DNA of 64,000 nt from Escherichia coli (GTDB taxonomy: Bacteria > Pseudomonadota > Gammaproteobacteria > Enterobacterales > Enterobacteriaceae), in assembly GCF_041886205.1 (NCBI RefSeq), contig NZ_CP169029.1, one strand, 5' to 3'. How positions within the stretch are numbered: position 1 is the stretch's first letter; each line of letters begins with the position of its first letter. The position numbers and the translations under genes are program-made. Positions 7,930-62,040 of the stretch are shown piece by piece. Under the pieces are notes generated by a model. It was not told the DNA's origin and made no database searches. It saw only the letters and a program-made list of their open reading frames with translations.

Positions 7930-8860
7930 CGAACGCTCCCAGACGTTTCACGAACGCCAGGTACAGTGCGATAAGAACAATCGGCACCAGGGTGAATGCC
8001 GCCGCCATCGGCATATTGCCAATCGCCCCCTGCTGGGAATAAACCATATTGCCGATAAAATATCCTGGCGGGCCAACCAGCTGCGGGACGATAAAATCGC
8101 CCAGTGTGAGTGAGAAGGTAAAGATAGAGCCAGCGGCAATACCCGGGATCGCCAGCGGCAGCACCACATAGCGAAAGGTTTGTCGTGGACGTGCGCCGAG
8201 ATCAGCCGACGCCTGCAACAATGACGGCGGCAAACGCTCAAGCGCCGCCTGCACGGGCAGGATCATGAACGGTAGCCAGATATAGAGAAACACCAGAAAG
8301 CGCCCCAGCCCGGAAGTTGACAGCGTATTGCCGCCCACCGCAGGTAATGTAAGGAACGCAGTCAGCAGTGGTTCCAGCCCAAGATGTTGTAAAAACCACT
8401 GAGCCACGCCATCTTTTGCCAGCAATAACGTCCAGGCATAGGCTTTAACAATGTAGCTCGCCCACATCGGCAACATTACCGCGATATAAAAAAACGCTTT
8501 CATTTTTCCGCTGGTATAGCGCGCCATATACCACGCCATTGGAAAAGCCAGAATGGCGCTGGCGATAGTGACTGCCACAGCCATGGTCAGCGTGCGGAGA
8601 ATGATGTCGTAATTCGCCGGATTAAACAGCGCACGGATATTCGCCAACGTCAGTTCCGGCGTTACCGACATGGTGAAATCGTCAAAGGTATAAAAGCCCT
8701 GCCATAACAGTGTTAGCAGCGAGCCGAAATAGACAATGCCAAACCACATTAGCGGGCCAAGCAGCAGCAAAAACAGCCCCCGCCCCGGATTACGCCAAAA
8801 GAAACCGGACACCTTACCCAGACCTGGACGTGAAGGTGATTGCAATACATTCATCGCCAT
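7919..8860 (-). CDS. ydcU: ABC transporter permease YdcU, 313 aa
   Basis: ORF 7919..8860; overlaps ydcV start by 11 nt. Confidence 0.9.
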
Positions 8861-26833: not shown

Positions 26834-28474
26834 TCACACCGTAGCGAAACTAACTGGTTCACCCGCTCCGCGAGGTTCTGCCGACACAGAATGTTTGTGC
26901 AGACGGAATACATCCACCGCCTCAGTTAATCGTGCCGCCTGTTCTTCAAGGGACACCGCCGCCGCTGAGGCCTCTTCTACCAGAGAAGCATTCTGTTGCG
27001 TCACCTTATCCATTTCAGAAATCGCCTGGCTAACCTGCGTTATGCCTCTACTTTGTTCATCCGAGGCGGCGGCGATTTCCTGCATGATATGTGTGACACT
27101 CGCGACGGCATCAACAATAGTGCTCATGGTTTTCCCTGCCGTTGCCACCTCATCCGACCCCAGGTCAATTAACCTGACTGATTCACTGATCAAGCCTTCA
27201 ATCTCTTTCGCCGCCTGAGCGCTGCGACTTGCGAGTGTCCGTACTTCGCTGGCGACAACGGCAAATCCACGCCCTTGCTCACCCGCTCGCGCGGCTTCAA
27301 CGGCAGCATTCAGTGCCAGAATATTCGTCTGGAAAGCAATACTGTTGATGACGGCGGTGATCTCAGAAATTTTCTTCGAACTCGTGGAGATAGCGCCCAT
27401 CGTTTTTACTACACCGGAAACCGTCTGCCCGCCATCGCTGGCTTTAATAGAAGCCTCTTGCGCCAGTTTACTGGCATAATGCGCGTTATCCGCATTCTGT
27501 TTCACCGTCGCAGTGAGTTGCTCCATGCTGGCGGCAGTTTGTTCAATTGCCGCCGCTTGTTCTTCGGTGCGAGATGAAAGATCCGCATTGCCAGCGGAAA
27601 TTTCGCTGGTGCCACGATAAATCTCTTCCGCGCCCTGTCGAACAGTCCCTACTGTCATCCCCAGTGAATGCTGCATTTGCTGTAAATGACGACTTAAGCG
27701 ACCGATTTCATTACGACCCGCCGGTTCATCATTCATCGTCAGATCGCCACTGGCGATTTTTTCAATCCGTTGTGCGGCATGTTGCAGTGGACGAATGACG
27801 ATCCGACGTAGCACCATAAATGTTATCAGCGTCATGACCAGGGCAAGCACAAACGCGCCAATCATAAACATCCCACCCAGGCTGGTGCGCTGATGGGCCA
27901 GTTCCGCCAGTTGGTTGGCTCTGGTGCTACGTATCTTAACGGCTTTGTTCAAAATATCGGTATAAGCATTATCCAGCGTTCGGATCTGCTCACTTTCATG
28001 ATTGATAATCGCTTCAAACATGCCATTTTTGGCATATTTCATCATAGGTTGCATACCCGTGATATAAGCCTGGAAGCGTTGATTTAATTCAGTGTCGAGG
28101 GCTTCATCAGCAGGTGTTTTCACCGGCCGATTCTGATAAGCACGATAACCTTGCTGCGACTGTTTAATCTCCGATTCGGCTTGCGCAATATTTCGCTTCA
28201 TTGCTTCCATTTCCGCAATACGACTCGCAGCCCCGGCCTGAATCATATTGATCCGGGCTGAACGCAAAAAATCTGAACTGTTCGCTAACCCGGTCCGAAT
28301 CTCAATCTCCGCAGTAACATCACGCTGATCGCGATCGGCCTGCCAGAGGAAATAGCCAGCCAGGGCTGAACTTAATGCGAATAGAACTAAGATACCGCCT
28401 AGAATGCAGGCAAATAACGGAACCAATCTGATGTGATGCAAAAAACCTAATCGCTGTGAGGGAGTTGTATTCAT
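26834..28474 (-). CDS. trg: Methyl-accepting chemotaxis protein III (ribose/galactose sensor) Trg, 546 aa
   Basis: ORF 26834..28474; two TM segments, HAMP and conserved MCP signalling domain. Confidence 0.9.
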
Positions 28475-28513
28475 TACCGTTGTCTCTCGTCCAGGTTTAC
28501 TCCTGATAGAAAG

Positions 28514-28540
28514 TCATCGGCATTTGACGGTAATTACTTA
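28514..28540 (-). promoter_or_regulatory. Candidate sigma-28 (FliA) promoter of trg
   Basis: Minus strand TAAG-N15-GCCGATGA close to TAAA-N15-GCCGATAA consensus, ~40-65 bp upstream of trg start. Confidence 0.45.
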
Positions 28541-28794
28541 CGACTAAAAGCCTCTTTGCGTCACATTTTTACAACAATTATTGCAGAGAAGATTAATGCT
28601 ATTGGAATGAAGAGAGTAACGAATGGCTAAACCGAATGACGAAAAATTCTGGAAAACAGCACGCAATTTCGTGAAGTGATTATTTCGTCCCTAAGGAAAC
28701 CTCATAGGATGCCTGCGGGTGCCTGAGACTTTCTGTTTTCAGGCTAACCGGGAATCAGAAAGACGAAGGCCCAGACCGATATTTCTATCAACCG

Positions 28795-29012
<218 letters not shown>

Positions 29013-29083
29013 GGGCAAGCGCGGGGATTTTCCCCGTGCATCTGACTAGCGGATTCATTTTCTCATGGCACCCCTTTTACACT

Positions 29084-29257
29084 TCAGTTAGTGCATGTTT
29101 TTTTCGATGCACTAATAGAACCATCATTACAGACAAATTTGCCGCCTGCCGTACAGTGTGAGATCCCCCCTTTCGAACCAGAACAGGGTTAGCGCCCGGC
29201 ATCGGCATAAAAGGAAACAAGCGTTCCCATAAACAAAATAAGTGCCAGTTTTTTCAT
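29084..29257 (-). pseudogene. ydcA: ydcA interrupted by ochre stop at codon 23 (58-codon frame otherwise intact)
   Basis: Minus-strand translation [63 protein letters not shown]; stop at 29189..29191. Confidence 0.7.
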
Positions 29258-29427: not shown

Positions 29428-29491
29428 CTTCCGATGTAGACCCGTATTCTTCGCCTGTACCACGGGTCGGTTTTAGTACAGGCGTTTTCTT
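29428..29491 (+). ncRNA. rydC: Hfq-dependent sRNA RydC, ~64 nt
   Basis: CTTCCGATGTAGACCCGTATTCTTCGCCTGTACCACGGGTCGGTTTTAGTACAGGCGTTTTCTT matches recalled RydC sequence; TATAAT -10 at 29417..29422; terminator hairpin plus U-run. Confidence 0.8.
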
Positions 29492-30220: not shown

Positions 30221-31222
30221 ATGAGTAAAGTTGGTATTAACGGTTTTGGTCGTATCGGTCGACTGGTGTTGCGTCGATTACTTGAAGTCAAAAGCAACAT
30301 AGACGTTGTCGCTATTAATGATCTCACTTCCCCAAAAATTCTCGCCTACCTGCTGAAACATGATTCAAACTACGGACCATTCCCCTGGAGCGTTGATTTT
30401 ACGGAAGATTCACTTATCGTTGATGGGAAAAGTATCGCGGTTTACGCCGAAAAAGAGGCTAAAAATATTCCGTGGAAAGCGAAAGGTGCAGAAATCATTG
30501 TCGAATGTACTGGCTTTTATACCTCCGCCGATAAATCGCAGGCGCATCTTGATGCTGGTGCGAAGAAGGTGTTGATTTCCGCTCCTGCCGGTGAAATGAA
30601 AACCATCGTTTATAACGTTAATGACGACACTCTGGATGGCAACGACACCATTGTTTCCGTGGCGTCATGCACCACTAACTGCCTTGCGCCGATGGCCAAA
30701 GCCTTGCATGACAGTTTCGGGATAGAAGTCGGCACGATGACGACCATTCATGCCTATACTGGCACCCAGTCACTGGTGGATGGCCCACGTGGTAAAGATT
30801 TACGTGCTTCACGCGCAGCGGCAGAAAATATCATTCCCCACACTACGGGGGCGGCAAAAGCCATTGGTCTGGTGATCCCGGAACTGAGCGGCAAACTGAA
30901 AGGTCATGCGCAACGCGTGCCGGTGAAAACAGGTTCGGTCACTGAACTGGTATCGATTCTCGGAAAAAAAGTGACTGCCGAAGAGGTGAATAACGCACTT
31001 AAACAAGCAACCACCAATAACGAGTCATTTGGTTATACCGATGAAGAAATAGTCTCTTCCGATATCATTGGCAGCCATTTCGGTTCGGTGTTTGATGCCA
31101 CGCAAACGGAAATTACCGCCGTGGGGGATTTACAACTGGTGAAAACGGTCGCCTGGTACGATAACGAATATGGCTTCGTCACGCAGCTTATTCGCACCCT
31201 CGAAAAATTCGCTAAACTCTGA
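30221..31222 (+). CDS. gapC: Glyceraldehyde-3-phosphate dehydrogenase GapC, intact 333 aa
   Basis: Uninterrupted ORF 30221..31222; NAD-binding GxGxxG (NGFGRIGR) and catalytic SCTTNC motif. Confidence 0.9.
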
Positions 31223-38065: not shown

Positions 38066-38680
<615 letters not shown>

Positions 38681-60541: not shown

Positions 60542-60570
60542 ATGCTCTGGATAAGGATTATCCAATTCTA

Positions 60571-60679
60571 AAAAAAAGCCCGGACGACTGTTCGGGCTTG
60601 TCTTTTTATATGTTGGAAAATCAGTGGCAATGCAATGGCCCAACAGAAAATAAAATCTGTGACAATAAAGGCATATAAC
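60571..60679 (-). ncRNA. micC: Hfq-dependent sRNA MicC (repressor of ompC), ~109 nt
   Basis: Minus strand GTTATATGCCTTTATTGTCACAGATTTTATTTTCTGTTGGGCC...AAGCCCGAACAGTCGTCCGGGCTTTTTTTT matches recalled MicC; divergent from ompN. Confidence 0.8.
60578..60608. terminator. Bidirectional intrinsic terminator shared by ydbK (+) and micC (-)
   Basis: Hairpin GCCCGGACGACTGTTCGGGC flanked by A-run upstream and T-run downstream. Confidence 0.7.
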
Positions 60680-60906
60680 CCGCGCAGAATAACGTATAGA
60701 AAATTAAAAGTATAATTTTTATTTTGTATGTATTATCTTCGATACATTCACCAGACTTATTATCATTTCAGAAGAATTATTTGATTAAGGTTTTACTTAA
60801 GGCGTAACAAATGATATTTATCGGCTAACTGAACTTCTCCTTTAGGATGTTTTCACTCCCCGAAATGGGGATAAAAGGCAAATAAAATAACTAAAGGATT
60901 TATTCA

Positions 60907-62040
60907 ATGAAAAGCAAAGTACTGGCACTTTTAATTCCTGCCCTGCTCGCCGCAGGTGCTGCACATGCAGCCGAAGTTTATAATAAAGACGGCAACAAAT
61001 TAGATCTGTATGGCAAAGTTGATGGCCTGCATTATTTTTCTGATAATTCAGCGAAAGATGGCGACCAGAGCTATGCGCGTCTGGGTTTTAAAGGCGAAAC
61101 CCAAATTAACGATCAACTCACTGGCTACGGTCAATGGGAATACAATATTCAGGCAAACAACACTGAATCTTCAAAAAACCAGTCATGGACCCGTCTGGCA
61201 TTTGCCGGACTGAAATTTGCAGAATACGGTTCTTTCGATTACGGACGTAATTATGGCGTAATGTACGACATCGAAGGCTGGACCGATATGCTGCCTGAAT
61301 TTGGCGGTGACTCTTATACCAATGCAGACAACTTTATGACTGGTCGTGCCAATGGCGTCGCGACTTATCGTAATACTGATTTCTTCGGTCTGGTAAATGG
61401 TCTGAACTTCGCGGTGCAGTACCAAGGTAACAACGAAGGTGCCAGTAATGGTCAGGAAGGCACCAACAACGGACGTGATGTTCGCCATGAAAACGGTGAC
61501 GGCTGGGGTCTTTCCACAACATATGATTTAGGCATGGGCTTTAGCGCTGGTGCGGCATACACCTCTTCTGACCGCACCAATGACCAGGTTAACCATACTG
61601 CGGCGGGTGGTGATAAAGCAGACGCGTGGACTGCTGGGCTAAAATACGATGCTAACAATATTTACCTGGCAACCATGTATTCAGCAACGCGTAATATGAC
61701 CCCGTTTGGCGACAGCGATTATGCAGTTGCGAACAAAACCCAGAACTTTGAAGTTACTGCACAATACCAGTTTGATTTTGGTCTGCGTCCGGCAGTCTCT
61801 TTCCTGATGTCTAAAGGCCGTGACCTTCACGCTGCCGGTGGTGCAGACAACCCGGCAGGTGTTGATGATAAAGATCTGGTTAAATACGCCGATGTTGGCG
61901 CAACTTACTATTTCAATAAAAACATGTCCACCTATGTTGACTATAAAATCAACCTGCTGGATGAAGATGACAGTTTCTACGCTGCCAACGGCATCTCTAC
62001 CGATGATATTGTTGCTTTAGGTCTGGTTTATCAGTTCTAA
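60907..62040 (+). CDS. ompN: Outer-membrane porin OmpN, 377 aa
   Basis: ORF 60907..62040; signal peptide, general porin family, C-terminal YQF. Confidence 0.9.

Follow-up and report, generated by a model that had tools for sequence, protein, structure and literature searches.

The DNA analysed here, hereafter the window, is a 64,000-nucleotide stretch of the Escherichia coli chromosome. It carries on its minus strand an open reading frame of 546 amino acids, which RefSeq annotates in identical strains as the methyl-accepting chemotaxis protein Trg; the upstream neighbours of trg in these strains are hokB, cybB and gap. A preliminary description of this DNA, made from the sequence alone, had placed TAAG-N15-GCCGATGA on the minus strand 5' of trg, and we find both the wording and the coordinates of that claim to be correct. 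Several complete E. coli genomes match the 801 bp around the site at 100% identity. Read on the minus strand, the region runs as ...GTCG TAAG TAATTACCGTCAAAT GCCGATGA CTTTCTATCAGGAGTAAACCTGGACGAGAGACAACGGTA ATG, with a 15-nt gap (28536-28522) between TAAG and GCCGATGA, so placed that the motif occupies the stretch 40-66 nt 5' of the trg ATG. The spacing agrees exactly with that of the sigma-28 consensus (TAAA-N15-GCCGATAA; octamers 11 nt apart). The site shows mismatches at two of the 12 bases that the preliminary description had specified, and over the complete octamers it matches the consensus at 4/8 (-35) and 7/8 (-10) positions. An alternative register for the -35 element (xTAAGTAA, spacer of 12 nt) was rejected, since both the published MEME alignment and the aer promoter follow the 11-nt register. 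The features of the locus and the RNA genes recognized in the window are:

26834..28474, minus strand: trg coding sequence, 546 aa, ATG at 28474
28506-28475, minus strand: 5' UTR of trg, 33 nt, from the K-12-mapped start
28507, minus strand: transcription start, +1 = A, measured in K-12 and placed via the K-12 alignment
28514..28521, minus strand: sigma-28 -10 octamer GCCGATGA, consensus GCCGATAA
28522..28532, minus strand: 11-nt spacer between the octamers, TACCGTCAAAT
28533..28540, minus strand: sigma-28 -35 octamer TAAGTAAT, consensus TAAAGTTT, with TAAG at 28540-28537
28547..28568, minus strand: CRP 22-mer AAATGTGACGCAAAGAGGCTTT, centre 28557.5
28717-28868, plus strand: sok/hok Rfam match, corresponding to the type I toxin-antitoxin locus hokB-sokB, which is transcribed divergently from trg
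29428-29491, plus strand: RydC Rfam match
60562-60682, minus strand: MicC Rfam match

Several observations concern the surroundings of trg. The published start of the hokB/mokB mRNA (1490241, 64 reads; Cho et al. 2014, PMC3923258) corresponds to about 28727 in the window, approximately 160 bp from the trg CRP site. Further along, ydcA (~29084-29257, minus strand) is a pseudogene with an internal stop by the annotation of an identical strain. The gap/gapC gene (30221-31222, plus strand) is an intact ORF of 333 aa, annotated as a type I GAPDH in identical strains; the K-12 table of Cho et al. 2014 (PMC3923258) enters this gene as gapC_1;gapC_2. The distance from trg to micC is 32.2 kb in the window versus 55.3 kb in K-12, approximately 23 kb of K-12 sequence being absent from the interval.

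Sigma-28 motif matches across the window

To what extent the motif stands out from its background depends on how it is sought. The exact trg pattern has a single occurrence in the window and none in 100 shuffles, which carries little weight, as the site itself supplied the pattern. Allowing up to two mismatches, TAAA-N15-GCCGATAA is found 17 times against 6.0 expected, and the octamer GCCGATAA is itself over-represented (11 occurrences versus 2.5 expected from dinucleotide shuffles); the shuffle expectations therefore understate the true chance background. The excess of both the octamer and the near-consensus matches is probably a matter of coding or oligonucleotide bias. We then scored all 127,946 positions with a position weight matrix built from 51 FliA sites of Fitzgerald et al. 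2014, from which trg had been omitted (leave-one-out). The trg site reaches 15.4 bits and ranks third. Two sites score at least as high, one within ompN (61869-61896, plus strand) and one in the ompN-micC spacer (60817-60844, minus strand), and neither of them is among the 52 in vivo FliA sites listed by these authors. Thus, on sequence alone the trg site is a good candidate, neither unique nor a proven promoter. Given that two sites with equal or better scores are not FliA-bound in vivo, the call at trg rests on context and position, conservation and experiment.

The other matches have features of their own. The ompN site (TAAAGATCTGGTTAAATACGCCGATGTT) reaches 18.1 bits, the highest matrix score anywhere in the window, and lies in sense orientation in the 3' part of the gene. 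The site in the ompN-micC spacer matches the sigma-28 consensus perfectly (TAAAGGAG-N11-GCCGATAA), has the orientation of micC, is identical in K-12, and its -10 octamer ends 139 nt 5' of the MicC 5' end (60679). A genomic SELEX peak of the RpoF holoenzyme has been reported in this spacer (Shimada et al. 2017), and the tables of Cho et al. 2014 (PMC3923258) contain no start near the site. Since overexpression of MicC has been reported in a 2026 preprint to raise flagellar transcripts, the spacer site is a minor lead. A further match (8032-8059, plus strand) is an exact copy of the weak intragenic ydcU FliA site GCTGGGAATAAACCATATTGCCGATAAA, which has a FAT score of 3 (Fitzgerald et al. 2014, PMC4183435). 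Another, CAAATTTC-N11-GCCGATAA (38561-38588, minus strand; 14.8-16.9 bits), is not among the published FliA sites and, by offset mapping onto strain LHM10-1, apparently lies antisense within azoR.

Conservation and strain variants

The trg promoter of K-12 is identical to that of the window in both octamers, their spacing, the left half of the CRP site, the discriminator and the 5' UTR. The two differ by four SNPs outside the core elements (K-12 to window): one in the poorly matching right half of the CRP site (28550 T>C), two in the linker (28545 G>A, 28541 A>G) and one in the spacer (28523 G>A). All four fall within 30 bp of core elements, at positions that also vary between species, and we infer that they leave promoter function unchanged. 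The exact 66-bp haplotype of the window (28505-28570) is present in 432 complete E. coli genomes, including O157:H7. Further upstream of the promoter K-12 and the window also differ by a 9-bp indel. In this regard we observed that at ~28632/28633 the hokB-trg spacer of the window has one copy fewer of a near-tandem 9-bp unit than K-12 (which reads GGTTAGCCA GTTTAGCCA), and that at ~28686 one A of an A run is missing relative to K-12; both indels are upstream of the CRP site.

For a deeper comparison, species-representative genomes were scanned with the N-terminal domain of Trg. This recovered five loci, from four divergent Escherichia lineages and one Citrobacter MAG, whose Trg proteins show 73-87% identity. 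Together with the window and K-12 they give an alignment of seven sequences covering Escherichia and Citrobacter. Invariant columns among these seven sequences are distributed as follows: 1) the -10 octamer is invariant at 8/8 columns, the non-consensus G included. 2) The -35 octamer is invariant at 6/8 columns, including all of TAAG. 3) The left half of the CRP site, AAATGTGA, is invariant at 7/8 columns, and the right half with its flank at 4/8. 4) The centre of the CRP site and the linker between the CRP site and the -35 octamer are each invariant at 1/6 columns. 5) The promoter spacer is invariant at 3/11 columns, as expected of a spacer, and 18% of the columns are invariant in the 72 bp further upstream. 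Elements that are kept between spacers that drift make up the footprint that the alignment would be expected to show at a functional CRP-assisted sigma-28 promoter.

FliA dependence and transcription start of trg

The preliminary description had proposed a FliA promoter for trg, and the same motif has in fact been published for K-12 together with ChIP-seq, RNA and lacZ data. Fitzgerald, Bonocora and Wade 2014 (PMC4183435) list in their Table 2 the 28-mer TAAGTAATTACCGTCAAGTGCCGATGAC, which differs from the window by the single spacer substitution at 28523, under a FliA ChIP-seq peak centred at 1490461 (NC_000913.2) with a FAT score of 23. In the same study normalised trg expression fell from 108 in motile MG1655 to 4 upon deletion of fliA, a difference flagged as significant, which supports the earlier assignment of trg to the late flagellar/chemotaxis regulon. 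Earlier microarray data point in the same direction, deletion of fliA lowering trg 2.0-fold and induction of FliA raising it 2.2-fold (Zhao et al. 2007, PMC1935009). Finally, in the work of Hollands, Lee, Lloyd and Busby 2010 (PMC2859248) a lacZ fusion to the cloned trg regulatory region, trg100::lacZ, was expressed in a sigma-28-dependent manner and required FliA. The trg100 fragment as printed (~400 bp) covers only the trg-proximal intergenic region.

A transcription start has likewise been mapped in K-12. Table S4 of Cho et al. 2014 (PMC3923258) gives a start at 1490461 (plus strand, NC_000913.2), with a low count of 8 reads and in stationary phase only, and its sequence column, which comprises the 50 nt upstream and the start, reads AAAGAGGTTTTTGGTCATAAGTAATTACCGTCAAGTGCCGATGACTTTCTA. 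This 51-mer ends in ...GCCGATGACTTTCTA, so that the start is an A seven bases past GCCGATGA; by the K-12 alignment it corresponds to 28507 in the window. With the start lying 7 nt after the -10 octamer it is consistent with a FliA promoter, and the comparison with a mapped start, which the preliminary description had named as the observation that could refute it, leaves the promoter standing. Counted from 28507 the -10 octamer occupies -14 to -7 and the -35 octamer -33 to -26, and the CRP site is centred at -50.5. The mapped start also coincides with the centre of the ChIP-seq peak, as expected of the holoenzyme. The Cappable-seq supplements of Ettwiller et al. 2016 hold no entry near trg, and a scan of 28400-29100 found no terminator.

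The data sets that supply the start also contain signals that could be read differently. One could argue that 28507 is used mainly by the sigma-70 or sigma-38 holoenzyme and that the sigma-28-like motif is incidental: Table S6 of Cho et al. 2014 (PMC3923258) gives the sigma binding at trg as 'DSF', the motifs as 'SHF' and the assignment as 'SF', which includes sigma-38, and sigma-70 binding at the trg start was seen by ChIP-chip, the start itself being detected only in stationary phase. We consider this very improbable, because trg RNA is 27-fold lower in the fliA deletion (PMC4183435), the lacZ fusion is inactive without FliA (PMC2859248), a consensus scan found no sigma-70-like promoter or hexamer pair in 28400-29100, and the bases that are invariant between species are those of the sigma-28 elements. 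Moreover, Fitzgerald et al. (PMC4183435) judged the ChIP-chip set in question to be of low resolution and rich in false positives.

It is just as improbable that a substantial part of trg transcription begins at a distal start approximately 586 nt upstream (~29060 in the window, minus strand) and reads through hokB/sokB, which would make the proximal motif one of two promoters. The start concerned (Kim et al. 2012: 1489908, plus strand, assigned to trg with a 586-nt leader) was seen in 4 reads, lies inside yncP and was given to trg merely as the next downstream gene, and the trg-proximal trg100 fragment already gives FliA- and CRP-dependent expression (PMC2859248). The near-total loss of trg RNA without FliA (PMC4183435) further makes this start unlikely to matter. 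That the motif is a chance match without promoter function has a negligible probability: the 17 near-matches in the window, and the two sites that score at least as high as trg yet lie outside the 52 in vivo FliA sites, show how readily such matches arise, but function is indicated by ChIP-seq and RNA-seq, by the reporter fusion and the mapped start, and by the phylogenetic footprint, and for K-12 published data have already refuted this reading.

The CRP site and the aer/trg group of promoters

The reading of the locus as a FliA promoter was thus right, and it was incomplete only in overlooking the CRP site at 28568-28547. Between the 22-mer AAATGTGACGCAAAGAGGCTTT and the -35 octamer TAAGTAAT lie 6 nt (TAGTCG), which places the centre of the 22-mer 17.5 bp 5' of the first base of that octamer, as the aer/trg type requires. 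The left half of the site, AAATGTGA, contains a perfect TGTGA (consensus TGTGA-N6-TCACA), and the right half is poor, GAGGC matching TCACA at 0/5 positions, with agreement confined to the flanking TTT. The site is known from K-12, where it was studied by Hollands et al. 2010 (PMC2859248): with FliA provided in a way that does not depend on CRP, CRP activates trg100::lacZ directly, in gel shifts it binds the trg fragment with an affinity similar to that for aer, and Fig. S2 of that study marks the CRP, -35 and -10 elements on the trg fragment. Among the eight well-characterised sigma-28 promoter regions of E. coli K-12 tested there, trg was one of only two activated by CRP.

The other one is aer, and the spacing from CRP to -35 to -10 was reported to be identical at the two promoters, with the CRP site of aer centred at -49.5 (PMC2859248). 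We verified this directly on the K-12 sequence: aer has the 22-mer AATTGCGATCTAAATCAAATTA, then 6 nt (ATCGGT), then TAAAGATA-N11-GCCGACAT, and so shares with trg the succession of CRP 22-mer, 6 nt, -35 octamer, 11 nt and -10 octamer. The value of -50.5 obtained above for trg is one base off the position expected from aer, within the precision of both methods. Both promoters drive a receptor of the MCP type, and in both the -10 octamer departs from the consensus in its 3' part. They differ in that aer has a better -35 octamer (TAAAGATA), another -10 octamer (GCCGACAT) and a better, two-sided CRP site (TGCGA-N6-TCAAA); furthermore, aer alone has been studied by primer extension of its start, by mutation of its elements and by reconstitution in vitro. 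The promoters of tar, motA, fliC, tsr and flgM have in common with trg the sigma factor, the spacing of the elements and membership in the late regulon. However, these canonical class 3 promoters are nearer to the consensus than trg (tar is TAAAGTTT-N11-GCCGATAA), their ChIP scores are 43-110 as against 23 for trg, and no direct effect of CRP was found on any of the five (Hollands et al. 2010, PMC2859248). Within the family of sigma-28 class 3 promoters, trg belongs to a two-member aer/trg group activated by CRP, the quality of its right CRP half-site being the one feature examined in the sequence in which it falls short. In genomic SELEX with the RpoF holoenzyme alone (Shimada et al. 2017), tsr, flxA and ycgR were bound and trg and aer were absent from the list; this fits activator dependence, as weak evidence because the screen recovered only a minority of the known promoters (14/144 of the sigma-28 promoters in RegulonDB).

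Identity and regulation of the trg promoter

Taken together, the motif very probably represents the only promoter characterised for trg, one of the class 3 (late) flagellar/chemotaxis promoters, read by FliA with the help of CRP. It is a promoter that is already known, and nothing about it is new here. FliA occupancy, dependence on fliA, binding and activation by CRP and the start itself were all shown in K-12 rather than in this strain; this strain retains the same promoter elements intact, and they are conserved throughout the Escherichia and Citrobacter sequences compared. By the mechanism that this arrangement suggests, RNA polymerase with FliA (sigma-28) would recognise TAAGTAAT-N11-GCCGATGA, open the promoter and start at ~28507, and a CRP dimer on AAATGTGA...TTT, approximately 50 bp 5' of the start, would help to recruit the polymerase, and may thus compensate for the two sub-optimal octamers. 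Recruitment of polymerase by CRP at trg is proposed here by analogy with aer, where CRP does so in an arrangement distinct from that of class I and class II sigma-70 promoters (Hollands et al. 2010, PMC2859248). Such a promoter would behave as an AND gate, with trg being on only if completion of the hook-basal body and export of FlgM have left FliA free and a poor carbon source has made cAMP-CRP active, which fits the role of Trg as the ribose and galactose receptor. A more tentative proposal, to which we give a rather low probability, is that the invariant non-consensus G in GCCGATGA and the weak -35 octamer reflect selection for an attenuated promoter, so that trg stays dependent on CRP, and that the strain SNPs around the CRP site and the linker, in the haplotype shared with O157:H7, may tune this dependence between lineages.

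For scans that rely on the DNA letters only, the locus offers a calibration: among the sigma-28 matches in 64 kb a genuine promoter ranks no higher than third, and the perfect consensus between ompN and micC is not detectably bound by FliA in vivo, so that position, conservation and experiment outweigh the motif score. For the organism the result has little import beyond annotation: trg of this strain falls in the FliA regulon with co-activation by CRP, as it does in K-12.
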